Position numbers and translations under genes: made by a program. A stretch of 64,000 nucleotides of DNA from Acidobacteriota bacterium (lineage in GTDB: Bacteria; Acidobacteriota; UBA6911), in assembly GCA_012719355.1 (NCBI GenBank), contig JAAYAM010000018.1:35758-99757 (forward strand), given 5' to 3'. The notes beneath the pieces are model-generated. The model was not told the DNA's origin, searched no databases, and saw only the letters and a list, made by a program, of their open reading frames with translations. Positions 1 through 63,557 of this stretch are shown in pieces (the stretch's first letter is position 1; the number at the start of each line of letters is the position of its first letter).

Positions 1-112
1 TCTCTCGGTGGTTTCGCCCGGCGATTACAGAATCGACATGGTCGAGGGGCTCGATATGTTTCCCCAGACCTACCACTTCGAAACGGTCGTGCGGCTGACC
101 GCCGGCAGTTAA
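1..112 (+). CDS. 3' end (partial) of an upstream gene; the tail resembles RlmD/TrmA-type SAM-dependent RNA (uracil-5) methyltransferases
   Basis: The frame is open from the window edge (phase starts at nt 2). It reads ...SPGDYRIDMVEGLDMFPQTYHFETVVRLTAGS* with TAA at 110-112. The DMFPQT.H.E.V..L ending is typical of that family. Only 36 codons are visible. Confidence 0.45.
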   Translation, partial: LSVVSPGDYRIDMVEGLDMFPQTYHFETVVRLTAGS

Positions 113-40263: not shown

Positions 40264-40417
40264 AACCTAAATTTGAAGATAACCCGAAAGCGGTGAAATT
40301 TGAATAGGAGGAGTGATTTCAAAAAACTTCTGGCCCAATCGTTTCGTATGGGGTATTGATGTATATTCGTTCAGCTGCCCACGGCACGGTCAAAGAAGGC
40401 AAAAAAGGAAGGAAGTC

Positions 40418-41518
40418 ATGTATCCTCAGGTCAGTCGTATAATGGAAGAAGGTGAAACGATAGCGGTTGCGACTATCGTTTCCACACTCGGTTCGACTCC
40501 AAGGGAAGTCGGAGCAAAGATGGTGGTTACGAGGTCCGGCGAGATAATCGGCACTGTCGGAGGCGGATGCGGAGAAGCAGAAGTTGTACGTTCCGCAGTT
40601 CAGGCAATCCGGGAGAGGAAGCCGGCCCTGGTAAGGGTCGAACTGATGGACGACATCGAATCGGACAGTCCGGCCGTGTGTGGCGGCATCCTCAATGTTT
40701 TCGTCGATCCGTGGTGGAAGGATGACGACGCGTCGATTCCCGCACGGATTGCGGATGAACTGGCCAGGGTAAGCGAGACCGGCGAGTCAGCGGTAGTCGC
40801 AACAGTTCTGGGCTCGGCCGGCGGCGCCATCGCTCCCGGACAGAAATGCGTCATACGGGACGGCAGCGTTCTGATCAGCAGCATCAGAAACGAAGCATTG
40901 CTGCAGGCCATCATCAGGGAATCTGATGAGCGAATGGTCAATGAACAGAGCCGGCAGGTCGCACTGTCCCTCCCGGACACAGGCGATAAAGTTGAAGTCT
41001 TTTTCGACGTTATCACCGCAGTTCGCAAAGTCATTATTGTCGGCGCGGGGCATCTGGCAGTCCCGCTGGCGCAATTTGCGAAGATCCTGGGCTTCCATAT
41101 TACGGTACTCGATGACCGAGTGATCTACGCCAATAGAGACAGGTTCCCCGATGTCGATGAAGTCATCGTCGGCGATATGGCTGAGACCCTTGGGAATCTC
41201 GAAATCACACCTCAGACCTACATAGTCCTGATCACCAGGGGGCATCAATTCGATGAACCGTGCCTGCGGCGAGTAATCAACAGCCCTGCGAAATACATCG
41301 GGATGATCGGAAGCAGACGGCGGATCAAGGCCTGTTTCATAAGGTTCAGGGATGAAGACGGGATCCCGGAGGAACTTCTGAAGAGAGTCTATGCTCCCAT
41401 CGGGCTGGATATCAAAGCGGAATCTCCCGAAGAGATTGCTCTTTCGATTGTTGCCGAGATGGTGAAAGTGCGTCGAGGCGGAAGTGCGCAATCCCTCGCC
41501 GGACTGCAGCTTGCCTGA
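40418..41518 (+). CDS. XdhC/CoxI-family accessory protein
   Basis: The N-terminal XdhC_CoxI motif is IAVATIVSTLGSTPREVGAKMVV...GTVGGGCGE. The C-terminal Rossmann motif is VIIVGAGHLAVPLAQFAKILGF. I trimmed the track ORF (40313) to the ATG at 40418. Confidence 0.85.
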   Translation: MYPQVSRIMEEGETIAVATIVSTLGSTPREVGAKMVVTRSGEIIGTVGGGCGEAEVVRSAVQAIRERKPALVRVELMDDIESDSPAVCGGILNVFVDPWWKDDDASIPARIADELARVSETGESAVVATVLGSAGGAIAPGQKCVIRDGSVLISSIRNEALLQAIIRESDERMVNEQSRQVALSLPDTGDKVEVFFDVITAVRKVIIVGAGHLAVPLAQFAKILGFHITVLDDRVIYANRDRFPDVDEVIVGDMAETLGNLEITPQTYIVLITRGHQFDEPCLRRVINSPAKYIGMIGSRRRIKACFIRFRDEDGIPEELLKRVYAPIGLDIKAESPEEIALSIVAEMVKVRRGGSAQSLAGLQLA

Positions 41519-45028: not shown

Positions 45029-48000
45029 ATGACGTATCAAGGACGTATGAAGAAGCGCTGGATCAGATTTGCCCTCTTACTGCCCGCATCACTTGTCGCC
45101 ATCCTGGTGGCATTTCTGCTATTTGTCCAGACTCCGTTCGCGGGACGGCTGATCGCCCGTCAGGTCCGCAGCTATCTGATCGAAAAGTACGGTGCCGATC
45201 TGCGGTGCACGGGACTCAGACTGAACCTCCTGAACACTTCCGTCGAGATCGACGATGTTGCAGTTCATTCCACTTCTACGCCGGGACTGCCGCCTGTTTT
45301 TCAGGCCGACACGGTTCGGGTGAAAGTCGGACTGGGCGGCATCCTGCGTGGAGTGACCGATCTCGAGCGGATTGAAATTGGGAGACCGCAGGTCAGCTAC
45401 GTTATCGGGAAAGACGGCCGAAGCAACATCCCTGAAATTCCTCCCTCTTCGGGCGAAAAGACTTCGCGGTTCCTCATCTCCCAGGCGATCGCCGAGAACG
45501 GATCGTTCCGGTATGAAGATGCCCGTGACGCCACTACCGTGATCTTTCCTTACTGGCAACTGTCGATCGCCGGAAATCGCGAGACGTTCGATCATGAAAT
45601 CAGCCTCACGGCGGGCCCTGTGGAGAAATTCCAGATTCAGGGACGTGTGATCCCGCTCGAAAGCTTAACGTTTTCGGGGCTCCTGCAGCCGGATGATCTC
45701 AGGATCAGGCTCGCCGAATTCCGTTTTCCCGGATCGATTGTAGCTGTATCCGGATCCATCACCGACTTGGATGCCCCCGGACTGGAACTGCAAATCAGCC
45801 CGGATCTTGATCTCGGCAGAATTATCAGCAGCGCGGGACTAAACTGGCCCGTTAAGGGGCGTGTTGCCGGCACCATCTCGGTTGTCGGCGCTTCCACCGC
45901 TCCTTCCATCAATGGACGACTGACGGGACGCAATATCGACGCCGGCCGCTACCGCAAAACCCGGTTCGATCTCCGGACCTCGGCAGAGATCACTTCAGAA
46001 GAGATTCTCCTCCGCGATGTCCGCCTTGTATCTCCGGAGGGCTCTCTGAACGCCAGCGGACGATTGTCCCTGTCACCTGAAGGTTCCAGTACCCTCGATG
46101 TCGGGATCAGGGACTTCAACCTGTACGGACTCGGGAAACAGCTCGATGCGCCGTTTGATATCGCAAGCCTTGTGACGGGAAGGGTCGCGCTGCGCTGGAA
46201 GGGGGCTTTCGCTCTTTCCCGAATCCGCGCAAATGCCAACCTCGACATGAGGACCTCGACAGACGTGCATGCTCCTGATCTTCTGCCGCTTTCCGGGACG
46301 CTGCATGCCAGGATGCAGTCAGACCGCATCGACGGTGAACTCCGGGACTTTTCGGTGATGGGGAGCCGTATCGCCGGCAGCTTTTCGCTCGATTCGCTGG
46401 AAACGCTGCAGGCTAATCTTGAAGGAACGATACCGGAAATTGATTCGACTGCGGCCCGCCTTGCGAAATTCCTCGGCGACTCGGGCGACGATCTCGCCGG
46501 ACTGGAACTCGGCGGAGCCGCCCATTTTCAAGTCCAGGCCGCAGGGCAGCTGCAAAACCCTGCCCTCACGGTCTCACTCGAAGCTTCTGAGCTGCGGGCA
46601 AGCGAATTCAAACACCTCAAGGCGCAGGTTAACGCCGCCATCGAAGGCCCTCACATTGAACTCGATACTGCGGTGACGTTTCCCCAGGAATCCACTCTGA
46701 ACGCACATGCGACTTTGGACACGCAGGGGGAGAAGACCCTGCTGGACTTGAACGCCTCCATCCGGGCAATGCCTGTCTTGTCGTTGCTGGCATCTCTGGA
46801 AAAAGACATCGAAGGATCCGGGACTTTCACCTCGGAATTGCACGTCAGCGGACCGATGGATGCCCCCGAGGCAAGCCTTGAGGTCACGAGCGATCCTATC
46901 TGGATAGAAGAGCAGCCTGTCGGGCAACTTGATCTTGCGTTGCACCTCTCCGAGGGCCGGCTCCGGTCCGAGCGGTTCCGAATCGTGAGAGACCGGACGG
47001 ATCCTGACCAGGACTATCTCGACGCGCGCATCACGTACGTTCCGAAATCGAGAGAATTCAGTTTCCAGGCAAACGGCAAGGCGCTCGACATGGGTCGGCA
47101 TACCTTCGGAGGGACAAAGGTAGAGGGCAGGATCAACCTCACGGCGTCTGGAAAAGGAACGATCGATAACCCGTCCATCGCAGCGGTGATCGAATCAGAC
47201 GACATCCGGGTACAGCAGAGATCGCTCGGGCCTGTGACCGTCACGGCTGACTTGTTGAACCAGGATCTGTCCGTCAAAACGACGGCGCCGCGCCTGAACC
47301 TTGCGTCGAACGTCCATATGGAGAACCGATCACCTTTCCCGTTCCAGGGTTCGGTGGAAGCCCGGAACCTTCAATTGGCGCTCTTCGAAATCGGGCTCGC
47401 GAAAGATGAATTGCTGGCCGGAGCCATCTCCGCCCTGGTCAAGGGTTCGGGAAACCTGGAGGATCTGTCCAAATCACGAGTTACGGCGCACATCGAGAAT
47501 GTGCATCTGGAAAGCGGCGCACTCAAGATAAACAGCCAGGGCCCGATAGATGCCGAATACCGGGACAACACGATCGAATTGAAGCGGCCGGCGATCATAG
47601 CAAGCGGAGATTCACGACTCGAATTGGCCGGCAGAGTGCCGCTTGAGAAGTCGAGTTCAGAGGGAACCCTGACCATCAGGGGAGAGATCGATCTTGAGCA
47701 GGCTGCCGGCTTTCTGCCTCCCCAACGGCAACTCGCTGCAGCGGGAAAGATGTATCTCAATGTGGCACTCTCGGGTGCCATGGATTTTCTGGCCGCTGCA
47801 GGAGTAATCACGGTACAGAACGGGCGTCTGCAGCATGCCGGTCTGCCGGTACCGCTGACGGGGATTGAAATCAGGAGTGCCATCGAGGGCGGTGCCCTGA
47901 CGCTGCAGAGAGCCGAGGCGAGTTTTGGAGAGGCGGCGATCAGCGCTAGAGGAGAGTTGCCGTTCGGTTTGCTGCCAGGGAATCTGCCGGTGCAGTTCTA

Positions 48001-51000
48001 CCGCAAGCAGGGTCCTGCGCAGCTTGTGCTCGACGTTGACAACCTCAGGCCCGAAGCTACGGAAATGCTTCCGGAAGGAATCAGCGGCCTTCTCTCGCTG
48101 CACGCAGAAGGAGAAGCGAAAAGTTTTGACCTGGAGGGAATCAGGGCAACTGCGGCCTTCCAGGACCTGCGCTTCAAAGCCAATCAGATCGAGATAGCAC
48201 AGCAGGGGGCATCCACGATCGTGCTGCAAGACGGAGTCGCCTCCGTCGCCCGATTCACGCTGACGGGGACAGGAACGAATATTGACATCACCGGTTCATT
48301 CGGACTCCTTCCCGGAAGCCCTGTGGATCTCAGGCTTGCGGGCGACTTCAATGCCGGATTGCTCACATTCGTCGACCAGAATCTCAAGGCCGCCGGAAGA
48401 ACGGACGTCAGGGTGGTGGTCGGTGGAACCCGGGAGGATCTGAAATTTGCGGGGATCGCGGAGATGAACGGAGGCCGGGTCACGCTTGTGAGTCCGCGGC
48501 TTGTCGCCGACAGCCTGACCGTAAGGTTGAGCCTTACTCCGGAACAGCTGACTCTCCAGGAGTTGAAGGGAACGCTCAACGGCGGTTCCGTTACGGCCGA
48601 AGGCACGGTCGCATCAAAGCGAAGCACCTTTGATGACTTCGACCTCAAAATGCGTGTTCAGGATGTTTTCTTCGACTATCCGCAAGGGCTGAAATCATCC
48701 TCGAGCGGCGATCTCACATTTACCTCACAGGATGACTTCCTTGTTGTAGGCGGGACTGTCCGGATACAGGAGAGTTCGTACCGGGAAGACTTCACAGTCA
48801 CCGGACAGCTGATGAATTTTCTCAAGTCACAGGGTTTCGAAGAAGAAGTGGAACCAAACCCGTTTCTGGACCGCATCCGTTTCAACGTTGCGGTCAGGAC
48901 CGTCACGCCGCTCCAGGTGCAGAACAATGTGGCGAGCATAGAAGCCACGGCAAATCTGAGGCTTGTCGGAACCGTTAACGACCCGTCGGTCACCGGCAGG
49001 ATAACCCTGAACGAAGGGGGCGAGATAATATTGAACAATCGGTCGTACTTTCTCGACCGCGGCAGCATAACCCTGACCGATCAAACACGGATAAGGCCGG
49101 AACTGGACCTGCAGGCCCAAACCAAGGCCCACGATTATCAGATAATTCTTGAACTGACAGGCACGCCGGACAAACTCACGACAACGTTGCGGGACGAATC
49201 GCAGGTACTGACGGAGCGACAGATCATCTCGCTCCTCCTTACCGGCAAGACCGACACCGACACCCAGGACACGGGAGCGAACGGAACCTCCACCGCCGGA
49301 AGCACGATGAAGACTCAGGCGCTTTCGCTTTTGGCCGGACAGGCGGGAGAACAGCTCACCCGTGAAGCACGGCAGGCGCTACGCCTCAGCACGTTCAGAA
49401 TAGACCCGGGAATGATCCAGTCCGAATCCGAGACAGCCGGACCCAGACTTACGCTCGGGGATGACATAACCAGCAAGCTCGGCATCCTTTACTCCATGAG
49501 CCTGGAAGGCGGCGGCAAAGAGATTGTCAGCGCCCGCTACGATATCGCACGCAGGCTTAGTGTGCAGACTACGAAACAGGAAGACAACATCTTCAGGTTC
49601 CAGATGCTTCACGATCTGCGCTTCGGTGGTGCCACAAGGCAAAGATCGGGCGGCCAGAGACGGGAGAGATTCGAGATCGGGTCAATAGAGTTCAAAAGCC
49701 CCACCCCCTCGGAAACGCTGCTGGGCAAGTTCAAGGCAAAGCCCGGAGACAAGTATGATTTTCCGAAGATCCAGAAGGGACTGGATAATCTGCAGGAGTA
49801 CTACAGAGCCGAGAAGCGGCTCGAAGCAGACATCCGGCTTGAAAGAGAGACCAGCCGGAACAAGGTCAATCTGGATATCTCGGCTGTCCCCGGGCCGGTC
49901 GTGTCGTTCGTTTTCGAAGGCGTGCCCCTGCCGCAGCGTCTGAAAAAGGAGGTCGAGGAAGCCTGGACAAGCGGCGTGTTCGATGTCGAACGACTTGACG
50001 ATGCGGTCAGCGCAATACGCTTCTATCTGCTCAGCGAGGGTTACCTGCAGGCGGCAATCTCTCACAGGATCGAAACCGACACCGACAGCAAGACCGTTTA
50101 TTTCAACGTCGAGCCCGGAGTGCGCTATGCCGGAGTCTCCAGGATTTTCCCCGGAGCTTCGCGCATCAAGGACTGGGTTTTGAACGAAGCTATCGACCGG
50201 GCCGGTCTTGGAATGGACGTTTACACGAATCCACGTAAGGTCTCCGATTTTCTCAAACGATACTATCAGCAGCGTGGCTATCTTCAGACAAAGGTGAGCC
50301 TTCCCCTGCCCGAACTCGACCCGGAAACCGGAACCGGTAAGGTCGTCATAACGATCGACGAAGGGCCCCAGTTTCTGGTTGGCGAACTGGAGTTCACCGG
50401 AAACGCCTCTTTCGAGTATGACGAACTCTGGAGCATCATTCCCACGTCGATCGGGAGCATCTTTAATACCGGCAGCATGCAGGATGCAGTGAAGGCGCTG
50501 GAGGATTTTTACCGTGCACGGGGCTACAATGAAGTCACCGTAACATACCGCGTTTCGCATGATCCTGCGAAGGCACTTGCTAATGTCCTCTTCCAGATCA
50601 CCGAGCGCAGGAAGTCCGTCATCCGCGAAATCGTGGTGGAGGGAAATCAGAGAACGAGCCAGAGCTTTGTCCTTAGCCAGCTGGACTTCCAGGTCGGAGA
50701 CGTGCTCGATGTCGCAAAAATCAACGAGAGCAGGAGGCGTTTCTACGCCACGCGAGTATACAGCTCGGTCGATTTTATAACAGAGGAGACACCGGGCGCC
50801 CAGAATCCACAGGTGAAGAACGTCCGCATCCGCGTAAGACTCCGGGAAGTCCAGCCCTACCGGTTCCAGTACGGCTTCCTCGTTGATACCGAGGGAAAGC
50901 GGGGGGGCTTGGTGGAGCTTCAGAATCTCAACTTACTGGGGAGAGCCTCGGCTCTCGGAATGAGGTTGCGGATTGATTCCGAGTTCAAGGAAGGCCGGCT

Positions 51001-51925
51001 CTACTTCAGCCAGCCGTTTGTGACAAAAATCCATCTCAAAATGGACGCTACGGCGTTTTACCAGGAAGAGAGCCGTGACAGCTTCTGGGCAAGAAGGATA
51101 GGCTTTTCCATATTCAGGGAAAAAGAGCTTCCCGGGAACATGGTTCTCAACTACGGATACCGCTACGACAATGTCAAATGGAGTGACGACTTCTCGCCGG
51201 ATCCTACCATCTTCCATGCGGATGTTCCGGTAGCACGCCTGATTACTTCGATAACGCGCGATACGCGCGACAGCGCTCTGGACGCCACCCGCGGAGACTT
51301 CACATCCCATAGTATGGAGTTCGGACCGAAGTGGCTGGGATCTGACATCGGATTCGCCCGCTACTACGGTCAGTTCCTCAAGTATGTGCCGCTCGAGAAG
51401 TACTTCGGGATGCGCACGGAAGATGAAGAGGGGAAGCCTGTGCCGAGCTCTTTCGTTTTTGCCAGTGCGCTGCGGCTGGGACTTACGTCCGCCTTCGGCT
51501 CCCCACCCCCGGACGATCCGTCACCTATCATTTCGCCCGAACGCTTCTTTGCCGGCGGCGGGACCACAATGCGTGGCTTCCCGCAGGATCTTCTGGGCCC
51601 CACCGAAATCGTGCCCGTCAAGAAGGAGGATGGAACAATCAAACCCGTGGAAAAGCCGAAAGGAGGGGAGGGGCTCTTCCTGTTCAACAACGAATTACGT
51701 TTTCCGCTCTTCAGCATCTTCCAGGGAGTGGTCTTCCTTGACGTCGGCAATGTCTACCCACGGCTCGCCGATTTCGACTTCACGCTGCGGAAGACGGCAG
51801 GAGCAGGGCTCCGGGCCAAGATCAAGTTCATTCCCCTTCGCTTCGATTATGGCTGGAAACTCGATCGCCTCAGGCCGGGCGAGAGCGCGGGCGAGTTCTT
51901 CTTCAGTATCGGGCAGGCTTTCTAG
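45029..51925 (+). CDS. Giant fusion protein: TamB/AsmA-like translocation-and-assembly module protein fused to a 5-POTRA Omp85/BamA-type outer-membrane beta-barrel
   Basis: The N-terminal anchor is WIRFALLLPASLVAILVAFLLF. About 1500 aa of repetitive beta-rich sequence end in a DUF490/TamB-type block (NDPSVTGRITLNEGGEIILNNRSYFLDRGSITL...ILELTGTPDKLTTTLRDESQVLTERQIISLLLTGKT). After a Gly/Arg linker (about 49630-49665) come five POTRA-like repeats (about 49670-50850). An Omp85 barrel follows (about 50850-51925), ending ...FFFSIGQAF*. Confidence 0.85.
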   Translation: MTYQGRMKKRWIRFALLLPASLVAILVAFLLFVQTPFAGRLIARQVRSYLIEKYGADLRCTGLRLNLLNTSVEIDDVAVHSTSTPGLPPVFQADTVRVKVGLGGILRGVTDLERIEIGRPQVSYVIGKDGRSNIPEIPPSSGEKTSRFLISQAIAENGSFRYEDARDATTVIFPYWQLSIAGNRETFDHEISLTAGPVEKFQIQGRVIPLESLTFSGLLQPDDLRIRLAEFRFPGSIVAVSGSITDLDAPGLELQISPDLDLGRIISSAGLNWPVKGRVAGTISVVGASTAPSINGRLTGRNIDAGRYRKTRFDLRTSAEITSEEILLRDVRLVSPEGSLNASGRLSLSPEGSSTLDVGIRDFNLYGLGKQLDAPFDIASLVTGRVALRWKGAFALSRIRANANLDMRTSTDVHAPDLLPLSGTLHARMQSDRIDGELRDFSVMGSRIAGSFSLDSLETLQANLEGTIPEIDSTAARLAKFLGDSGDDLAGLELGGAAHFQVQAAGQLQNPALTVSLEASELRASEFKHLKAQVNAAIEGPHIELDTAVTFPQESTLNAHATLDTQGEKTLLDLNASIRAMPVLSLLASLEKDIEGSGTFTSELHVSGPMDAPEASLEVTSDPIWIEEQPVGQLDLALHLSEGRLRSERFRIVRDRTDPDQDYLDARITYVPKSREFSFQANGKALDMGRHTFGGTKVEGRINLTASGKGTIDNPSIAAVIESDDIRVQQRSLGPVTVTADLLNQDLSVKTTAPRLNLASNVHMENRSPFPFQGSVEARNLQLALFEIGLAKDELLAGAISALVKGSGNLEDLSKSRVTAHIENVHLESGALKINSQGPIDAEYRDNTIELKRPAIIASGDSRLELAGRVPLEKSSSEGTLTIRGEIDLEQAAGFLPPQRQLAAAGKMYLNVALSGAMDFLAAAGVITVQNGRLQHAGLPVPLTGIEIRSAIEGGALTLQRAEASFGEAAISARGELPFGLLPGNLPVQFYRKQGPAQLVLDVDNLRPEATEMLPEGISGLLSLHAEGEAKSFDLEGIRATAAFQDLRFKANQIEIAQQGASTIVLQDGVASVARFTLTGTGTNIDITGSFGLLPGSPVDLRLAGDFNAGLLTFVDQNLKAAGRTDVRVVVGGTREDLKFAGIAEMNGGRVTLVSPRLVADSLTVRLSLTPEQLTLQELKGTLNGGSVTAEGTVASKRSTFDDFDLKMRVQDVFFDYPQGLKSSSSGDLTFTSQDDFLVVGGTVRIQESSYREDFTVTGQLMNFLKSQGFEEEVEPNPFLDRIRFNVAVRTVTPLQVQNNVASIEATANLRLVGTVNDPSVTGRITLNEGGEIILNNRSYFLDRGSITLTDQTRIRPELDLQAQTKAHDYQIILELTGTPDKLTTTLRDESQVLTERQIISLLLTGKTDTDTQDTGANGTSTAGSTMKTQALSLLAGQAGEQLTREARQALRLSTFRIDPGMIQSESETAGPRLTLGDDITSKLGILYSMSLEGGGKEIVSARYDIARRLSVQTTKQEDNIFRFQMLHDLRFGGATRQRSGGQRRERFEIGSIEFKSPTPSETLLGKFKAKPGDKYDFPKIQKGLDNLQEYYRAEKRLEADIRLERETSRNKVNLDISAVPGPVVSFVFEGVPLPQRLKKEVEEAWTSGVFDVERLDDAVSAIRFYLLSEGYLQAAISHRIETDTDSKTVYFNVEPGVRYAGVSRIFPGASRIKDWVLNEAIDRAGLGMDVYTNPRKVSDFLKRYYQQRGYLQTKVSLPLPELDPETGTGKVVITIDEGPQFLVGELEFTGNASFEYDELWSIIPTSIGSIFNTGSMQDAVKALEDFYRARGYNEVTVTYRVSHDPAKALANVLFQITERRKSVIREIVVEGNQRTSQSFVLSQLDFQVGDVLDVAKINESRRRFYATRVYSSVDFITEETPGAQNPQVKNVRIRVRLREVQPYRFQYGFLVDTEGKRGGLVELQNLNLLGRASALGMRLRIDSEFKEGRLYFSQPFVTKIHLKMDATAFYQEESRDSFWARRIGFSIFREKELPGNMVLNYGYRYDNVKWSDDFSPDPTIFHADVPVARLITSITRDTRDSALDATRGDFTSHSMEFGPKWLGSDIGFARYYGQFLKYVPLEKYFGMRTEDEEGKPVPSSFVFASALRLGLTSAFGSPPPDDPSPIISPERFFAGGGTTMRGFPQDLLGPTEIVPVKKEDGTIKPVEKPKGGEGLFLFNNELRFPLFSIFQGVVFLDVGNVYPRLADFDFTLRKTAGAGLRAKIKFIPLRFDYGWKLDRLRPGESAGEFFFSIGQAF

Positions 51926-51997: not shown

Positions 51998-52570
51998 CTA
52001 CTGATAAAGCTTGAAGAACAGGGTCTTTCCGCGTCCCGTGGCCCCTCCGGTATCCGGATCGAATACCATGATCGGTTTGGTTTCTTTCTTGTCCACCACA
52101 AATGCAACCCAGCCTTCCAGCGACTTGCCGGGATCGACTCTGCCTACCAGCGCAGGTTCCGGCACCGTGACCGACGGTTTGGTGAACTCGGTCAGATCCG
52201 ATCCCAGAGCAATCCACTGAAGCGGCGCTTTTCCGATATCGATGGACATCTTGTCACTGACATAGCGTCCCTTGATCTCGAATTTCACGCGGGCGAGAAT
52301 GTACTCCGAATCTGCAGCCGGCGCCGGATTTGTCGCGCTCGCAGCCTTCAGCCGATCCATCGCCTCTTTGCCGCGAACCACTTCGAGAGTGGTCACAGTA
52401 ATGTCGTAGATGTTCGAGCTAACGGAACCGAGTTCGACCATGGACCGCACCGGCGCCCCGATAGCCGCCGGATTGGTCGGAGAGTTGTCCTGTGCCCCCG
52501 CTGGAAGGAGAAAGCCGACGAAAACAAATGCAAACAATACCATGAAAAGCACTACCATTTTGTTTCTCAT
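51998..52570 (-). CDS. Secreted hypothetical protein, DUF4352-like Ig-fold
   Basis: Signal peptide MRNKMVVLFMVLFAFVFVGFLLPAGAQD. The body (ITVTTLEVVRG...YILARVKFEIKG...GKSLEGWVAFVVDKKETKPIMVFDP) resembles DUF4352. The ATG at 52570 has GAGGAG upstream and lies 13 nt after the preceding stop. Confidence 0.6.
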   Translation of the reverse strand: MRNKMVVLFMVLFAFVFVGFLLPAGAQDNSPTNPAAIGAPVRSMVELGSVSSNIYDITVTTLEVVRGKEAMDRLKAASATNPAPAADSEYILARVKFEIKGRYVSDKMSIDIGKAPLQWIALGSDLTEFTKPSVTVPEPALVGRVDPGKSLEGWVAFVVDKKETKPIMVFDPDTGGATGRGKTLFFKLYQ

Positions 52571-52583
52571 TGCTCTTCTCCTC

Positions 52584-54362
52584 TTATCTCCAATGGTCCA
52601 CGGACGCGCTGCCAATGTAACCGAAATCTCCACCGGCCCAGAAGGTGTTTGTTCCTCCTCCTGTGACGACGATCTCAATGGTAGTGGCGGTATTGCCGCC
52701 CAGGGAGGTGAAGCCTGAGCCGCTTCCGGCCCTTCTGCCGCCGCCCTTATAGCGTGAAACCGGAACCACCACGTCTTTGCCCCGTTTCAGCCAGCTCGCA
52801 TAGGGCTCCACTCCGGACTCAGCCTGCTTCAAGGCCGTACGGTTCTGAGACCAGAATAACCAGCCCGGCGTCCCTGTGTTATCCGCAAGGTACCTGGCGA
52901 ACTCTTCCTTCGACTTGTAGCCGTTGTTGGCGATATCGGCGGCGACAATCGGGTCGATAACCAGCGTCGCCTGCCTGGTGCCGTACGAGAAGAAGTTTTC
53001 CAGCCATCCCCGGATGACTTCATGAATCGGCAGCGGGGAATACCATGCGATGTTGCTGAAGCTCCAGCCGTTGAAGAAGCTGACAACGCTGTCGTTCTTT
53101 TTGAATCCTTTCTGCACGTGCAGCGGGGTCCAGCCTGCAGGCAGGTTGTCCTCGTTTTCCGGCATGCAGAGATTGTTGTAGTTGATTGGATTCCCGAGGC
53201 TGCCGAGGTAGGTTTCTCCCGGCTTCCCGGATCCACCCAGGTTCTTGGAAATCAGCGTCCAGCATCTGCCGATGGAGGAATTGGCCTGATTGAACGGACC
53301 CAAAGCGCCGATGCCGGTGTTCATGCCGATCTCTTTGACCACCGGACCGTTAACCACAACCATGCGGCCAAACGACGATGTTGAACTGATCATAGATGTG
53401 ACACCTTTGGAAGCCATGGCCAGGATCGTCGGGAAATACTCAGGCTTTACTCCAGCCATGACTGCATTCACCGCTACCATTTCCACCGTGTAATACCATG
53501 CTTCATGCGGAGGAGACGGGCGCATCTGCCCGACCCACTCATCCGGCTTGCGGCTCGTCGCCTTCAGCATCTCGGCAACTTTCTTCTCGGTCGGGAGAAT
53601 GATGGGATTGCCGTCGGTGAAGTTCTGCTCATGGAAAAACTGCATCAGCCTGTCGGGCGTGTCTGGCGGCAAAAGTCTCGGCCGGGGATCGCGTTTGAGG
53701 TATCCGGACTTGGCGTCTTCCGCCGAAAGCTTCCCTGTCAGACTGTCATAAATCTGTTCCAGCATAGGCTTGCCCGAAATCGGGTCGTTGCCCGCCACGT
53801 ATTTCCGGCACAGCTCCGCAGGTCTGTCCGTGATGGGATGAGGCGTGAAGGTAATCCGCATGTTCGGGATTCCCTTCTTGTAAGCGATGGTCGTGACAAG
53901 TTCCTGGAATCTGCGAGTGATCATCGGTACGGACGGGACTCCCATTCTCTCCAAAGTCACTGCATGGCCGACGACCGCCGGCGCGCAGCTGCTTCAATGG
54001 CCTACCAGAACAATCGATCCCGCAGCCTTCTCTTTGACCTCCTTCCACAGGTTTGGATCATCATCCATGTACATCCCGAACTTCTCGCGCAATACCCATG
54101 TCGTCTTCGGGTATTTTGCCTGAAGCGCGGAGTGAAGCTCAGTGACGAATGGCTTCGTCATGGCGTATTTGGTATCCACGATGTACACAGTCTTGCCGTC
54201 AAGCGTGGGCTGCCGCGGCGCCATCGGAATCTTGCGAATCTCAGGCTGAACACCGCGAGGATTCATAACTACTATCTTCCCTTCGTCGGCCGCCCATCCT
54301 GAGAATGAGGCGAACGACGCGATCAGAATGGCAATCATCATGCCAATCGTCCTAATTTTCAC
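52584..54362 (-). CDS. Candidate selenoprotein of unknown function (two track ORFs joined through an in-frame TGA at 53994-53996; U-x-x-C motif; N-terminal signal peptide)
   Basis: ORFs 53994..54362 and 52584..53960 share a frame. Only TGA plus 11 sense codons separate them. A SECIS-like hairpin follows the TGA. The upstream GTG start has AGGAGG 7 nt upstream, while the downstream GTG has no RBS. Read-through gives ...SIVLVGH-U-SSCAPAVVGHAVTLERMGVPSV... Confidence 0.6.
53960..53988 (-). promoter_or_regulatory. SECIS-like stem-loop immediately 3' of the in-frame UGA
   Basis: The mRNA reads UGA AGCAG-CUGC-GC-GCCGGC-GGUC-GUCGGC-CAU-GCAG. It forms a 6-bp upper stem (one G-U pair) capped by a GGUC tetraloop at nt 21-24 from the U of UGA. 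A 4-bp lower stem sits across a small internal loop. Confidence 0.55.
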
Positions 54363-54512
54363 AACACCACCTCCTGTGGTAAAACATTTCAGTTTGGCCC
54401 CCTCAACTCTGACAAACGAACTTTACTCTCCGTCCGGGATCTTCATACTCCCGGAACCTCAGTAAAAATCGACCGTGTCTATTATGCGATATCACATCTC
54501 GTATAGGCGGAC

Positions 54513-54542
54513 AGTGTAGGTCGAATTCAACGACAGGGTCAA
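54513..54542 (-). promoter_or_regulatory. Sigma-70-like promoter candidate for the selenoprotein operon
   Basis: On the minus strand there is TTGACC (54542-54537), an 18-nt spacer, then TACACT (54518-54513). It lies about 150 nt upstream of the GTG start. Confidence 0.35.
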
Positions 54543-57598: not shown

Positions 57599-58414
57599 TC
57601 AATAGCGGTCAGGACCTGCACGACCGCCCGCCGCGGTTATCCAGCAGAAAACCGGGTCATGGGCTTCTTCTGCGGGACGCCTTCGGCTGCGCAGCTCCGC
57701 AAGGGAATCACTCATTATCTGGAAGACGTCTTCCATGAGCCGGTGCTTTTCTCCCCTGGCATAGCCCGACAGATCTATGGGCGCCCCGATCCTGATCCTG
57801 ATCGTTACTCCGGGAGTCACCTGCAGCGTTCCCGGAACTATGACACGGCTGCTGCCGTCGAGTGTTATCGGAACCAGCGGCACACCGGTGCGCAGCGCAA
57901 GGGCAAACGCACCGCTGCGGAATTCCCCCAGTTCCCCCGTTCGACTCCGGGTCCCTTCCGGAAAAGCGATTGCGCTCACCCCGCCGCGAATCTCCTCCGC
58001 GGCCTGTATGATTGTCTTTGCCGCTTCCCTGGGATTTTCACGGTCTATCGGGATGTAGCCGGAGCGACGCATGTGCCATCCCATGAACGGAATCCGGAAG
58101 AGCGACTTCTTCGCAATCCAGCGAAACTGAATCGGAAGGAATGCCGCGAGCGAAAGGATATCGTGCAGTCCGCTGTGATTTGCCACGAGTATCTGGGGAC
58201 GGGTGCGATCGATGTTTTCGATGCCTTCAATCTCGACGCGGGCCCGGCTCAGCCACAGGTTGTCCTTCGACCACCTGCGCATGCAGTAATGCTGCAGCTT
58301 TCCCGTGCCCGAGACCAGGCTCCCGAGTATCGAGACAGTTCCCCAAAACACCGTGCTCACTGCGCATCCGGTCCAGCACCAGGTCGTGAAAATTCCGGCT
58401 CTCAGTCTTTTCAT
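57599..58414 (-). CDS. plsC: 1-acyl-sn-glycerol-3-phosphate acyltransferase
   Basis: An N-terminal TM segment is followed by the acyltransferase motifs VANHSGLHD (H-x4-D) and FPEGTRS. Confidence 0.85.
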   Translation of the reverse strand: MKRLRAGIFTTWCWTGCAVSTVFWGTVSILGSLVSGTGKLQHYCMRRWSKDNLWLSRARVEIEGIENIDRTRPQILVANHSGLHDILSLAAFLPIQFRWIAKKSLFRIPFMGWHMRRSGYIPIDRENPREAAKTIIQAAEEIRGGVSAIAFPEGTRSRTGELGEFRSGAFALALRTGVPLVPITLDGSSRVIVPGTLQVTPGVTIRIRIGAPIDLSGYARGEKHRLMEDVFQIMSDSLAELRSRRRPAEEAHDPVFCWITAAGGRAGPDRY

Positions 58415-59369: not shown

Positions 59370-60170
59370 ATGACACCCGATGTTGCAGATGCGCGGGAAA
59401 GAATTCAAATCATCGCCCACAGGGGAGCATCAGGCGACGCTCCGGAAAGCACGCTGGAGGCATATCGTCTCGCCCTCGCACTGCAGGCCGACTTCATCGA
59501 GATGGATGCCCACAGGCTGAAAGACGGGACAATCGTGATCATTCATGACTCCGACGTCGCCCGTACGACAGATCGCAGGGGAAAACTCTCCCGTTTCACG
59601 CTGTCTGAGCTGAAAACGCTGGATGCAGGGAGCTGGTTCAACAAGTCGTTCCCGGAGAAGGCCCGACCCGAGTACGAGGGACTCAGGATCCCTACTCTCG
59701 ACGAAGTTATCGATATCGTCGCAGGAAGCGACACGGGTTTTTACATTGAAATCAAGGAGCCCGAGCACTACCCGCCCGATTTTGAGTCGCTGCTCCTTTC
59801 CATTATCCACAACAGGCGGATCAGAGAACGGACGACCGTCTTTTCGTTCAGCGCGCGTTCAATAATGAAAATCAAGGCGCTCGATCCGGGAATGAGAACG
59901 GCCCTCCTGGTGTCCGGCAGACGCATCGATCCGATCGCCTCTGCGATCCGCGTAAACGCCGAAGAGCTCTCGCTCAGGCACGACCTGGTTACTCGCGCGC
60001 TCGTCAGCGCAGCGCGCGAAAACGAGCTTGCGATCTCGGCATGGACGGTGGACAAAAAGCCCGACATGCAACAGATCATACAACTCGGCGTGGACCGCGT
60101 TGTCACCAATTATCCCGGACGGCTCAGACAGCTGCTCAATTCCCGTGTGTCAGCTGCTCGGCGGTCGTGA
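59370..60170 (+). CDS. Glycerophosphodiester phosphodiesterase
   Basis: IIAHRGASGDAPESTLEAY, FIEMDAH, IIHDSD and YIEIK are GDPD-family motifs. Confidence 0.85.
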   Translation: MTPDVADARERIQIIAHRGASGDAPESTLEAYRLALALQADFIEMDAHRLKDGTIVIIHDSDVARTTDRRGKLSRFTLSELKTLDAGSWFNKSFPEKARPEYEGLRIPTLDEVIDIVAGSDTGFYIEIKEPEHYPPDFESLLLSIIHNRRIRERTTVFSFSARSIMKIKALDPGMRTALLVSGRRIDPIASAIRVNAEELSLRHDLVTRALVSAARENELAISAWTVDKKPDMQQIIQLGVDRVVTNYPGRLRQLLNSRVSAARRS

Positions 60171-61818
60171 ACCGCGGTTCGATATCAACAGGAATTCCGT
60201 CGAGCCGGGCAAGAGCTTTCTGCACTTCCGGGCGAACAACCGCCAGCCGGGAAAGAAGCTCGCCGGCTTCGTCATAGCTCCCCTCGGCCTCGAGTGTCAG
60301 GAGTTCTCTGGTGAGCGCCTCGACCCCTTCCCCGATTTTCCCGCGGTCAACTGAAAATGTGCCGTCCCTCTCCATCCTGAGAGCGCCGTAATCGAGCAGG
60401 AAGTTAAGCTGCAGCGCCATCCCGCGCCCATGAGCTTCATTGATCCCGAAGCGCATCGAACGGAAAGCGGACGCAAGATACGTTACATACATACTCTCCT
60501 GCAGTTCCTTGGCGAGAACACCCTTGTCGACCAGGTACTGGAGCGCAAAGAGCCCCGAGATATCGGCCTTGGCTTCTTCTATCGCACTATAATTTCCCCC
60601 GAGCTCCTGTCTGACAGTGCTGGCGCGTCCCTCACGCACGATATCGTGCGGCCCCAGCCCGTGCATCAATTCATGCATCACTATGTGGGTGAAGAAGGCA
60701 TCGAAGGAGACGTATGATTGATCGGCCGCCGACAGCACCCTGCGTGAAATCGGGAGCAGAACAATTCTGAATTTCGCCTCCTGCACGTTCTTCAGCATGA
60801 CCCGTTTGGCACCTTTTTCCCGTATGACGCGCTCGTCGTTCGGCAGATTGAAGGCGGCGGTCTGAACTCCCCGGTTGGCGTCACCGGCGGCAAATATCTC
60901 GTTTACGACCCGGATGGGTGCCATCGATCCGATTTTCGGATTCCTGTACTTCGGATCGACGGGCAGATTGTTCTCTATTTCCTGAAGACAGGAACCGAGT
61001 TTCGAAAGCTTCGCAGTCTCAGGGTCATCGCGCACGGTGATAAATGCCTCGAACGCAGCCTTGGCGTTGAACCACTCGTCTTCGTACACCTCATAGGGGC
61101 CGATTGTCGGTTCAACACTCGAATCGAGCTCCATCCATGCAAGATCGCTGTCGTAGTAATCGTTGTTCAAAAAAGCATCGGCGCGTTTTATGAGATAGGC
61201 TTTCAGGGTAGGCTGCGCCGTCAGGGAAGCGGCCTCCCTCAGCAGGGCCGCCGCTTCTGCAAGTTCTCCCTGGTATTCGAGACTATACGGAACGGTCAGG
61301 AATCTGCCCGGCGACGTCCTTTCGTGGCGGATAGTGGTAAAGAACCCCATCGCCCTGGAACGTTCGGATGCGTTCAACGTGTTGAGCCACGCTTCGATTT
61401 CCTTCTTGTCAATTCCGGCCGGATAGAAGTTGGCTCCCGCAGGCTTCTCCGGAGTTCCCGGAATGAAGGGAAGGTCATTATCCAGGCGCGACCAGGGTCC
61501 TTTGTTAAGCAGGAAATAGTGCAGCCGCGCTTTCCCGACAGGAGAATCACTCTGCCGCACCAGATCCAGCAGCATCGTTTCATTGCCTGCCCACACCTGG
61601 CGCAGGAAGATCGCGTCCATTATCCTTGCCGCCTTCACAAGGCGGGCCAGCGCCTCGCGTTCCTGCACAGGGAGATGCGAGATGTCGGCCGAGATCTCAA
61701 CCGGAGCAAACCGTTCCGCCATTTTTCGGATTTCTGCCGCATCGGGCATTCTCACCTCCTGTGATTGCAGCGGGATTACAGTCAGAACGAGAAGGAACAG
61801 TGCCGTTCGAACTTTCAT
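60136..61818 (-). CDS. Secreted zinc metallopeptidase, dipeptidyl-peptidase III (M49)-like
   Basis: Signal peptide MKVRTALFLLVLTVIPLQSQ. The metal motifs are VMHELMHGLGPH and IEEAKADISG. Its 3' end overlaps the convergent GDPD gene by 35 nt. Confidence 0.65.
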   Translation of the reverse strand: MKVRTALFLLVLTVIPLQSQEVRMPDAAEIRKMAERFAPVEISADISHLPVQEREALARLVKAARIMDAIFLRQVWAGNETMLLDLVRQSDSPVGKARLHYFLLNKGPWSRLDNDLPFIPGTPEKPAGANFYPAGIDKKEIEAWLNTLNASERSRAMGFFTTIRHERTSPGRFLTVPYSLEYQGELAEAAALLREAASLTAQPTLKAYLIKRADAFLNNDYYDSDLAWMELDSSVEPTIGPYEVYEDEWFNAKAAFEAFITVRDDPETAKLSKLGSCLQEIENNLPVDPKYRNPKIGSMAPIRVVNEIFAAGDANRGVQTAAFNLPNDERVIREKGAKRVMLKNVQEAKFRIVLLPISRRVLSAADQSYVSFDAFFTHIVMHELMHGLGPHDIVREGRASTVRQELGGNYSAIEEAKADISGLFALQYLVDKGVLAKELQESMYVTYLASAFRSMRFGINEAHGRGMALQLNFLLDYGALRMERDGTFSVDRGKIGEGVEALTRELLTLEAEGSYDEAGELLSRLAVVRPEVQKALARLDGIPVDIEPRFTTAEQLTHGN

Positions 61819-62009
61819 GATCTTCAGAATACCGCACTTTTCAATCAGGATCGCGGCAGATTGCGTCTTTTGCTGAGTCGCAGCTATGCAATTTGTTGAA
61901 TTGGCTTTTGGTATTCTCTATTATTCCAGATTTCAGCTCATGGGTGAACGTGTCTGCAGAAGCAACCAAAACTGTAACTCCACCAAAGTCCAGGGCGACC
62001 GCCGAAAGC

Positions 62010-63557
62010 ATGGCGACCCGCCAGCGTGAAATTTCCATCTCTGAATTCTTCAGCAAGAATCGTCATCTCTTAGGATTCGATAACCCTCAGAAGGCGCTCC
62101 TGACGGCCGTGAAAGAAGCCGTCGACAACTCTCTGGACGCCTGTGAGGATGCCGGGATCCTGCCCACGCTTAAGATCGAAATCCGTCAGCTGGAGGACGA
62201 CCGCTTCCGCATCGCGGTCGAAGACAACGGCCCCGGCATCGTGAAATCCCAGATACCGAAAATCTTCGGCAAGCTTTTATATGGGTCGAAGTTTCACACT
62301 CTTAAACAGGCGCGCGGCCAGCAGGGCATCGGGATTTCGGCCGCCGGCATGTACGGGCTGCTCACGACGGGCAAGTCCATTGCTGTCACATCCCGCACAG
62401 GAGCAGGGAAACCGGCGCATTACTACGAGATCCAGATCGACACCCGGAAGAATGCGCCGCAGATCATTACGGACAAGGTCGTAGATTGGGAGGCGGAACA
62501 TGGAACGCGGGTCGAGATCGAGCTGATCGGGACCTACAAGAAAGGACGCCACTCGGTCGATGACTATGTGCGCCAGACAGCGATAGCCAATCCGCATTGC
62601 GAGATTTTCTACACCCCGCCGGATGCTGCTGAACCATTTCATCTGCAGCGGGGATCCGAAATGCTCCCTGCGGAACCGAAAGAGATCAAGCCGCATCCTT
62701 ACGGCGTCGAGCTCGGCGTTCTTATCAGGATGATGAAGGAGAGTTCTTCGCGTCAGCTCAGCGCCGCACTTCAAAAGGACTTCTCGAGGGTGAGCAGTCG
62801 CGTGGCCGCCGAGATCTGCCATGCCGCCGGGCTCAGGCCAAGCGCCAATCCGCACACTATCGTAGTGCATGAGGCTGAACAGCTGTTCAAGGCAATCAAC
62901 AGTGTCAAAATCATGAGCCCGACGACCAACTGTCTTTCTCCGATCGGAGAAGAACAGATTCTGTCGGGACTGAAAAAAGAAATCGATGCTTCTTTCTACA
63001 CCGCCATAACGCGTGCGCCTGCCGTCTACCGGGGGAATCCTTTCCAGGTGGAAGTCGGTCTCGCGTACGGCGGCAGCCTCAAGAGCGAAGAGCTCATCGA
63101 TCTGTTGCGTTTTGCCAACCGCGTGCCGCTGCAGTATCAGCAGTCCGGTTGCGCCATGACCAAAGCCGTTCTGGGAATTGACTGGCGCAATTACGGACTG
63201 TCTCAATCCAAAGGAGCACTCCCGACAGGTCCCGTGGTCCTTTTCGTCCATATCGCGTCGGTCTGGGTGCCCTTCACTTCGGAAAGCAAGGAAGCGGTAG
63301 CCGCCTATCCGGATATCATGCGTGAACTGAGGCTGGCATTGCAGGAATGCGGCCGCAAACTCTCGATGCACGTCCGGGCGCACAGAAGAGCGGTCGACGA
63401 GCAGAAGAAGCGGTCTTACATAGAGAAATACATACCGCACATCGGCATCGCGCTTCGAGAGATTCTCGGATTGAGCGACCAAGCCGAGAAGGATCTCGTG
63501 GTGACGCTCAAGGACGTACTCGAGCGTAGCCGCTCACGCGAACAGTTCACGGACTGA
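62010..63557 (+). CDS. top6B: DNA topoisomerase VI subunit B
   Basis: QREISISEFFSKNRHLLGFDNPQKALLTAVKEAVDNSLDA is the Bergerat-fold N box and VEDNGPGIV is the G1 box. A transducer domain follows. The start could instead be an upstream GTG within the track ORF (61893). Confidence 0.9.
   Translation: MATRQREISISEFFSKNRHLLGFDNPQKALLTAVKEAVDNSLDACEDAGILPTLKIEIRQLEDDRFRIAVEDNGPGIVKSQIPKIFGKLLYGSKFHTLKQARGQQGIGISAAGMYGLLTTGKSIAVTSRTGAGKPAHYYEIQIDTRKNAPQIITDKVVDWEAEHGTRVEIELIGTYKKGRHSVDDYVRQTAIANPHCEIFYTPPDAAEPFHLQRGSEMLPAEPKEIKPHPYGVELGVLIRMMKESSSRQLSAALQKDFSRVSSRVAAEICHAAGLRPSANPHTIVVHEAEQLFKAINSVKIMSPTTNCLSPIGEEQILSGLKKEIDASFYTAITRAPAVYRGNPFQVEVGLAYGGSLKSEELIDLLRFANRVPLQYQQSGCAMTKAVLGIDWRNYGLSQSKGALPTGPVVLFVHIASVWVPFTSESKEAVAAYPDIMRELRLALQECGRKLSMHVRAHRRAVDEQKKRSYIEKYIPHIGIALREILGLSDQAEKDLVVTLKDVLERSRSREQFTD

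Follow-up and report, generated by a model that had tools for sequence, protein, structure and literature searches.

A predicted exported selenoprotein of the UGSC family, divided at its in-frame TGA by gene annotation, in an Acidobacteriota bacterium

In a 64-kb stretch of the genome of an Acidobacteriota bacterium (contig JAAYAM010000018.1), here called the window, a minus-strand gene is interrupted by a single in-frame TGA. The explanation that best accounts for the evidence, and that we hold to be very probable, is that the gene encodes a 592-residue precursor of a UGSC-family selenoprotein, in which UGA123 is decoded through a selenocysteine insertion sequence (SECIS) and whose product is exported and carries a redox-active U-x-x-C motif. 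That the gene is real and that its TGA is decoded as selenocysteine (Sec) in a single UGSC-family protein is well supported by sequence comparison. The features of the gene are given below in positions of the whole window.

52584..54362, minus strand: complete selenoprotein gene, 592 codons followed by TAA, with U123 encoded by TGA (open reading frame, Pfam and orthologues)
54370..54375, minus strand: Shine-Dalgarno sequence AGGAGG with a 7-nt spacer to the GTG start codon (read directly from the sequence)
54291..54362, minus strand: predicted signal peptide of the Sec (secretion) type, residues 1-24 (VKIRTIGMMIAILIASFASFSGWA, with cleavage before ADEG; positive n-region, hydrophobic core and small residues at -3/-1)
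53796..54269, minus strand: UGSC domain (Pfam PF24696), residues 32-189, containing U123-S-S-C126 (Pfam match)
53994..53996, minus strand: TGA read as the selenocysteine codon, U123 (TGA in 37/37 orthologous loci; Cys or TGA in the related clade)
53959..53989, minus strand: SECIS-like hairpin with upper stem GCCGGC/GUCGGC, apical loop GGUC and a weaker lower stem (folding and comparative evidence)
52587..53687, minus strand: C-terminal domain, residues ~226-592 (~370 aa; no Pfam, NCBIfam or PDB relative)

The start codon is a GTG at 54362-54360, from which 122 sense codons lead to the TGA at 53996-53994, and the frame beyond it stays open for 469 codons up to the TAA at 52586-52584. A second open reading frame (ORF) nominally begins at GTG 53960, separated from the TGA by 11 sense codons (SSCAPAVVGHA). 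This GTG has no Shine-Dalgarno sequence and lies in the 3' arm of the hairpin. Translation through the TGA yields ...AAGSIVLVGH-U-SSC-APAVVGHAVTLERMGVP..., and the read-through peptide across the UGA is GH-U-SSCAPAVVGHAVTLER. A preliminary description of this DNA, made from its letters, had reported two same-frame minus-strand ORFs only a TGA and 11 codons apart, an AGGAGG 7 nt before the upstream GTG, a downstream GTG without a Shine-Dalgarno sequence inside a hairpin, and a U-x-x-C motif following a hydrophobic strand upon read-through. Each of these points was confirmed by the sequence and, for the hairpin, by folding. The ORF pair by itself, however, is not beyond chance in such G+C-rich DNA: about 90 same-frame ORF pairs (at least 60 codons) in the window are split by TGA, and the selenoprotein pair ranks 14th among them. 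Because such pairs are common, the case rests on Pfam, orthologue and codon evidence. Other split genes that might represent further selenoproteins were sought across the window, and no convincing case was found.

Profile searches, run with U replaced by C, place the protein in the UGSC family. PF24696 matches with an E value of 1.7e-27 and 97 bits against a gathering cut-off of 25, over profile positions 2-159 of 172, so that the domain spans residue 123, and the same profile matches all 15 diverse long-form homologues. The kinship with proteins named "UGSC family (seleno)protein", to which the preliminary description had pointed, is thus borne out. NCBI and UniProt likewise name full-length Cys homologues "UGSC family (seleno)protein" or "UGSC-like domain-containing protein". 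The NCBIfam equivalog NF041046 (147 positions) gives 66.6 bits (E 2.4e-18), which falls short of the 125 bits it requires; P0273, a long Cys homologue, reaches 57.4 bits on it. UGSC is an established predicted selenoprotein family (Zhang & Gladyshev), with 255 Sec and 21 Cys sequences in the Global Ocean Sampling (GOS) data (PMC2398784), and a 2026 review lists it with NF041046. Our literature search found no paper assigning a function to the family.

The window protein shares with the family a Sec in first position of a U-x-x-C motif after a hydrophobic strand, as well as the exchange of Sec and Cys at that column. The position and spacing of the motif are kept, whereas its letters vary: U-S-S-C in the window clade, U/C-S-T-C in a sister clade, and U-G-S-C in the family at large. 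In contrast to the NF041046 proteins of ~147 aa, the window protein adds a signal peptide and a domain of ~370-400 aa. A fusion termed UGSC/Unknown_1 is mentioned in the GOS paper (PMC2398784, Fig. S1A) and resembles the window protein in joining the UGSC domain to a conserved domain without assigned function; the motifs NAVMAG and TDGLP did not occur in the searched part of its sequence supplement. The gene had been put forward as a candidate new selenoprotein. This is true of the subclade, but UGSC itself was recognized as a family in 2005-2008 and databases already contain the long two-domain form. The window gene is thus a new, mis-annotated member of a known family, and its clade appears to be set apart by predicted export, by the Sec-only U-S-S-C motif and by an obligate partner gene of 190 aa.

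We fetched 38 related loci from metagenome-assembled genomes (MAGs) of Acidobacteriota and Desulfobacterota, 37 of which include the upstream region. TGA occupies the identical column, within the motif GH-U-SSC, in all 37 of these independent assemblies from two phyla, and in every one this TGA is the first stop encountered in frame when reading upstream from the called gene, exactly 12 codons before the match. The protein encoded ahead of it is conserved as a signal-peptide-like N terminus followed by KIVVMNPRGIQPEIRKIPMA...YMDDDP.LW.E.K...IVL.GH-U-SSC-[SA]P[AS]VVGH. In all orthologues the residues encoded by the 11 codons between the TGA and the nominal GTG are conserved, and strong purifying selection acts both before and after the TGA.

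Public databases present the gene in pieces. The closest 120 database clusters (65-98% identity), of 393-460 aa, extend over no more than 66-77% of the query, with no full-length entry (0/120), which means that all are cut at the TGA. In a 7.4-Mb Acidobacteriota genome (L044), the gene is annotated as two genes of 122 and 453 aa. Such annotation, the truncation of 120/120 clusters and the standing of TGA as the commonest stop codon in the window are what would be expected if this TGA were an ordinary stop that separated an exported N-terminal fragment of 122 aa from a protein of 458 aa beginning at GTG 53960. However, the PF24696 domain requires both halves, the codons between the TGA and that GTG are conserved as protein, and the GTG itself lacks a Shine-Dalgarno sequence and is buried in a hairpin. 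In addition, homologues with Cys at the TGA column are single proteins of 545-567 aa, and a signal peptide, present in the product of the partner gene, would be missing from the second product. We therefore regard two separate proteins as very unlikely. One gene with a recoded TGA, as initially proposed, agrees with the single Pfam domain that spans the codon and with its conservation in 37/37 loci.

Full-length homologues of 545-622 aa were taken from a 50%-identity representative library, and the Sec column is Cys in P0135, P0146 and P0149 (CSTC) and in P0136 (CPGC). We also fetched 80 loci of a large clade of cytoplasmic long-form UGSC proteins (~545-567 aa, GVGH-C/U-STC-AP), which have the same two-domain architecture and 38-43% identity to the window protein from end to end. 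The motif is GVGH-C-S[TN]C-[AS]P in 56 loci and GVG[HL]-TGA-STC-[AS]P in 26. The Cys forms belong to Alpha- and Betaproteobacteria and Actinobacteria, and the TGA forms to Chloroflexota, Rokubacteria, Binatia, Methylomirabilia and others. Exchange between Cys and TGA at one column is a hallmark of Sec. The preliminary description had reasoned that Cys homologues should align continuously across the TGA while other homologues carry TGA at the same place, and this is what the alignments reveal. Two of the signs by which selenoproteins are recognized were accordingly found, namely an in-frame UGA that the orthologues share, flanked on either side by conserved coding sequence, and Cys homologues at the same column.

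The same comparisons bear on two further explanations. A TGA arising from an assembly or sequencing error, or marking a pseudogene, is effectively refuted: the codon is present in 37/37 independent assemblies of the window clade and in 26 loci of the sister clade, and, being common to 63 independent assemblies, it is not a sequencing error; strong purifying selection on both sides likewise argues against a decaying gene. The one observation in favor of such an explanation is an additional in-frame TAA in the L011 orthologue (~4399-4401, IYAGLT-stop-PLS), at a position where the others have Arg or Lys. That copy is likely a pseudogene or an assembly error of its MAG.

Alternatively, the UGA could be read as Trp, Cys or Gly by near-cognate decoding or under a reassigned code, in whose favor it may be said that no Sec machinery was found in the window. 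However, TGA terminates 15/30 confident genes of the window, and the long ORFs contain no in-frame TGA, so the genetic code is not reassigned. The exchange of Cys and TGA at one column and a hairpin that is tied to the TGA, with an fdhF-like GGUC loop and distance, and that is lost in the Cys forms also speak against such decoding, and we think it highly improbable. Decoding as Sec is the reading pursued below.

The hairpin begins ~8 nt after the UGA. Its upper stem pairs 53982-53977 with 53972-53967 and closes the GGUC loop at 53976-53973, which lies at +21..24 from the U of UGA. This is the arrangement expected of a bacterial SECIS, which closely follows the UGA and carries G-U in its apical loop at a suitable distance. 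Among 36 distinct orthologues, synonymous-codon entropy over the 13 codons from the TGA is ~0.47-0.6 bits, compared with 1.16 upstream and 1.27 downstream, and this stretch is the minimum of all 13-codon windows in the 139 codons examined. In the orthologue alignment 96% of stem cells are paired, the G:C pair that closes the loop is replaced by A:U in 5 sequences with zero intermediates, and the covariation score is higher than in any of the 500 shuffles or in any slid control. The cytoplasmic clade provides a control. Among its distinct sequences, GGTC at +21..24 with a 4-bp stem is found in 20-21/22 Sec forms but in only 1/56 Cys forms, and the mean minimum free energy is -14.5 kcal/mol for Sec forms and -6.6 kcal/mol for Cys forms. 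Two cytoplasmic-clade loci, L084 and L090, carry this loop at an unchanged distance on a wholly different stem (CCCCAC-GGTC-GTGGGG).

The hairpin resembles that of Escherichia coli fdhF, which also follows the UGA directly and bears a GGUC loop, verified at +22..25. The GU of the loop is at +22/23 in the window gene and at +23/24 in fdhF. The stem of the cytoplasmic clade, 4 bp with a 5' bulged pyrimidine, is built as in fdhF, whereas the upper stem of the window clade differs in sequence and consists of 6 continuous pairs without a bulge. Taken together, the comparative evidence shows a bacterial fdhF-like SECIS, which would direct SelB-type decoding of UGA123.

Several findings weigh against this interpretation or against the role it gives to the U-x-x-C motif. 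The folding energy of the hairpin (-26.7 kcal/mol) is unremarkable for G+C-rich sequence (z -0.23 versus shuffles), so support for the SECIS is comparative rather than thermodynamic, and an Rfam scan of the window at the gathering threshold gave no match, SECIS included. No selA, selB, selC or selD was found in the 64-kb window (34 ORFs scanned; no tRNA) or in the fetched loci, and no tRNA-Sec was detected in any of the 126 loci searched. Sec use has been documented in both Acidobacteria and Deltaproteobacteria (PMC1794560, Table 2). Moreover, no reductant gene is present near the exported clade in the neighborhoods of related loci. Finally, the redox pair is lost in P0122 and P0378 (HMDT), P0125 (HTVT) and P0129 (QSST); as these homologues without C/U-x-x-C keep both domains, their sequences indicate that the pair is not essential to whatever the C-terminal domain does.

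The C-terminal domain carries the motifs TDGxPxxxPT, VAVNAVMAG, VNGP, MNxGxGAxGP, IGR, ENE and VVGG and ends in D-x-W-R. Across 75 sequences D250, T258, E294, S326, S330, R366, E402, H415, D589, W591 and the C-terminal R592 are invariant, and the invariant residues of the domain are retained even in homologues without the redox pair. The domain has no Pfam or NCBIfam match, and a relaxed Pfam scan of 15 diverse members gave no consistent weak match. A PDB sequence search found nothing either with the single protein or with a 74-sequence profile. The AlphaFold2 model of the window domain is confident (predicted local distance difference test [pLDDT] 82.7, predicted template modeling score [pTM] 0.83), and Foldseek found no match to it in the PDB, the best E value being 0.025 with a template modeling (TM) score <0.25. 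Class I fumarase, IRG1/PrpD and Toblerone-fold hydrolases were considered as relatives and dismissed as noise (E >=0.025, TM <0.25). The initial impression that this domain matches no characterized enzyme was thus sustained by the Pfam, NCBIfam, PDB sequence and Foldseek searches.

For the N-terminal domain, we used an AlphaFold2 model of the full-length, two-domain Cys homologue P0273 (~42% identical to the window protein; pLDDT 91.2, pTM 0.90). Its CxxC follows strand 3 and precedes helix 3 in a domain of the order b-a-b-a-b-a-b-a-b. Foldseek matches of this domain in the PDB were weak and generic, namely flavodoxin-like, Rossmann-like and periplasmic-binding-protein-like folds, with no thioredoxin among the 50 listed. 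The thioredoxin fold proposed for UGSC in 2008 (PMC2398784) is not supported by this model of a 42%-identical homologue, which suggests instead that the UGSC domain is a flavodoxin/Rossmann-like alpha/beta domain.

At L043 3571-13102, two non-redox long UGSC-family genes, P0122 (HMDT) and one of 582 aa (GVGDSGIG), lie intermingled with genes for two glycyl-radical enzymes, their radical-SAM activase and an amino-acid permease. The neighborhood offers a possible functional link for the C-terminal domain.

A predicted signal peptide and the gene downstream of the selenoprotein are specific to the window clade. Signal-peptide layout is preserved in 33/33 reconstructable orthologue N termini despite varying sequence, without a lipobox or a twin-arginine motif. 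Proteins of the cytoplasmic clade lack this segment. U123, C126, C185 and C399 do not vary across the exported clade, and 29/33 sequences also have C367. C399 precedes E402, the residue of the ENE motif that is invariant in the family, by three positions. The two remaining features of the locus are the partner gene and a promoter-like match.

51998..52570, minus strand: partner gene, probably co-transcribed with the selenoprotein gene, encoding a Cys-free protein of 190 aa with a predicted signal peptide (...LLPAGA, with cleavage before QD); neighbor in 38/38 loci
54513..54542, minus strand: weak sigma-70-like promoter match, TTGACC-18-TACACT (a consensus match only, with no evidence of function)

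The partner gene has its own Shine-Dalgarno sequence (GAGGAG, 52583-52578), and its ATG follows the selenoprotein stop codon by 13 nt. It is immediately downstream in all 38 related loci. The only family match is to DUF4352, sub-threshold at E 0.008. A 183-aa gene that follows the non-redox relative P0378 was considered as a homologue of the partner and rejected, as the two are not homologous. The sequences suggest that the selenoprotein and its partner are exported together to the periplasm, where the partner, probably beta-rich, may act as a binding or scaffolding subunit. Upstream, the selenoprotein gene follows gcvP across a 280-nt gap, which contains the promoter-like match ~150 nt before the start codon; three such sigma-70-like consensus matches were found against 1.4 expected. 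An acyltransferase gene is also nearby. Beyond the two-gene unit of the 38 loci, no gene cluster recurs in more than ~7 loci, antisense ORF artefacts apart.

Some genomes hold more than one copy of such genes. The complete 6.9-Mb Acidobacteriota chromosome OY761556.1 has at least five GH-U-SSC copies (L020, L022, L023, L025 and L031), each with a 190-aa partner, which points to paralogue expansion. In six related loci, a paralogous second long-form selenoprotein gene is found near the main gene (L005 3811-5511; L015 281-1993; L027 8005-9720; L030 8023-9732; L037 5429-7144; and L035 2171-3862, minus strand); the window has no copy of it. This paralogue bears the canonical motif VVGD-U-GSC-TKFL with an in-frame TGA in 6/6 and a signal or lipoprotein-like peptide. 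It has the same type of C-terminal domain, although it ends in ...VPxYxxY rather than D-x-W-R and its post-TGA sequence is different.

Comparing the two long-form clades, they share the invariants of the C-terminal domain, the D-x-W-R terminus and an equivalent SECIS in the Sec forms (GGUC at +21..24). However, the cytoplasmic proteins have no signal peptide and no 190-aa partner, and Cys forms are common among them, whereas the window clade is Sec-only among the 120 closest clusters, always has the partner and has no thioredoxin reductase (TrxR) neighbors. A TrxR-like gene of the low-molecular-weight type (active site CA[ST]CDG) adjoins 41/80 cytoplasmic loci, 37 times downstream and 4 times upstream, and often overlaps the UGSC gene by a few bases. 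This neighbor hints at a redox-driven enzyme. Other recurrent neighbors of the cytoplasmic clade, assigned from sequence, encode putative Bug/TctC-type and ABC substrate-binding proteins, an AMP-dependent ligase and a malonyl-CoA-decarboxylase-like protein.

We propose that SelB-type recoding of UGA123 through the fdhF-like SECIS would produce one protein uniting the UGSC and C-terminal domains, which its predicted, cleavable Sec-type signal peptide would route to the periplasm together with the partner. In the folded protein, U123 and C126 could form a selenol/thiol pair that cycles through a selenenylsulfide, as their modeled position between a strand and the N terminus of a helix is typical of such pairs. 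Judging from the homologues, the U-x-x-C motif would pass reducing equivalents to, or attack, a substrate held by the C-terminal domain. The cytoplasmic homologues may receive their electrons from the adjacent TrxR-like flavoprotein, while for the exported clade a DsbD/CcdA-type relay, environmental thiols or sulfide are candidate reductants.

The main mechanistic rival accepts the same selenoprotein but takes U-x-x-C to be a site for a soft metal or metalloid (Hg, As, Cu, Ni or Se), serving periplasmic binding or detoxification. Predicted export with no adjacent reductant gene would suit such a role, as would the additional invariant Cys residues of the clade (C185 and C399, with C367 in 29/33) and the non-redox relatives, whose fold does without the pair; metal binding is also a property of several selenoproteins predicted in bacteria (PMC13188914). 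Yet no metal-resistance or metal-transport genes are conserved nearby, and redox cycling is favored because the cytoplasmic homologues are paired with TrxR-like reductases. We consider a metal site improbable, though less so than the rivals to Sec decoding discussed above.

For the redox-active selenoprotein, a parallel may be drawn with the GrdB/PrdB system, in which a U-x-x-C subunit forms a selenenylsulfide that is re-reduced by a TrxR-type system while a second module binds the substrate. The parallel would be one of analogy, and GrdB/PrdB are cytoplasmic whereas the window protein is predicted to be exported. The preliminary description had gone further in likening the layout to GrdB/PrdB-type reductases, and no test backed that resemblance. 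The GrdB/PrdB Pfam families (GRDB / Gly_reductase) gave no match at E values up to 1-5, and no grdA/E, prdA or pyruvoyl-protein genes are nearby, where the neighbors are gcvP, the acyltransferase gene and the 190-aa partner.

We offer, as a tentative and rather speculative extension, that the long-form proteins might constitute a new enzyme class, in which a fold-novel catalytic domain of ~370 residues works with a C/U-x-x-C flavodoxin-like domain that is recharged in the cytoplasm by TrxR-like proteins, the window clade being an exported, Sec-only version with a beta-sandwich partner and an extracytoplasmic substrate. If this were true, anaerobic Acidobacteriota and Desulfobacterota would possess a selenoenzyme activity in the periplasm that is new.

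A few other features of the window were recorded. A 2298-aa ORF (45029-51925, plus strand) that converges on the partner gene combines DUF748/AsmA-like and TamB segments, four POTRA domains and an Omp85 barrel, and looks like a TamB-TamA/BamA-type fusion in one polypeptide. The gene at 61893-63557 (plus strand) encodes a topoisomerase VI B-subunit transducer domain (E 4e-60) and a GHKL ATPase domain; topoisomerase VI is unusual in bacteria, though not unheard of. At 11332-13587 (plus strand), a 751-aa ORF matches the CofD family (E 4.6e-47) over residues 67-457 only, and the protein extends well beyond the match. An XdhC/CoxI-family gene (40313-41518, plus strand; molybdenum hydroxylase maturation) is followed by a shikimate kinase gene, and no selenium link was seen there. 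Genes for a peptidase M49 (60136-61818, minus strand) and for the acyltransferase (57599-58414, minus strand) are near the selenoprotein and partner genes in the window and also in L044 (11202-16386). This arrangement suggests shared synteny with that genome, and therefore a related lineage.

With 120/120 of the closest database entries truncated at the Sec codon and the N-terminal half called separately or lost, the clade has been invisible as a selenoprotein, and the signature of a TGA followed by a GGUC loop would permit its re-annotation. UGSC ranks with the most abundant selenoprotein families predicted from aquatic metagenomes. Leads to its function are provided by the two-domain architecture, by the TrxR-like partner of the cytoplasmic homologues and by the confident model of a C-terminal domain without a solved relative. 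The existence of a Sec-only clade that is predicted to be exported and is multi-copy in some genomes suggests a periplasmic selenium-dependent activity in anoxic habitats.

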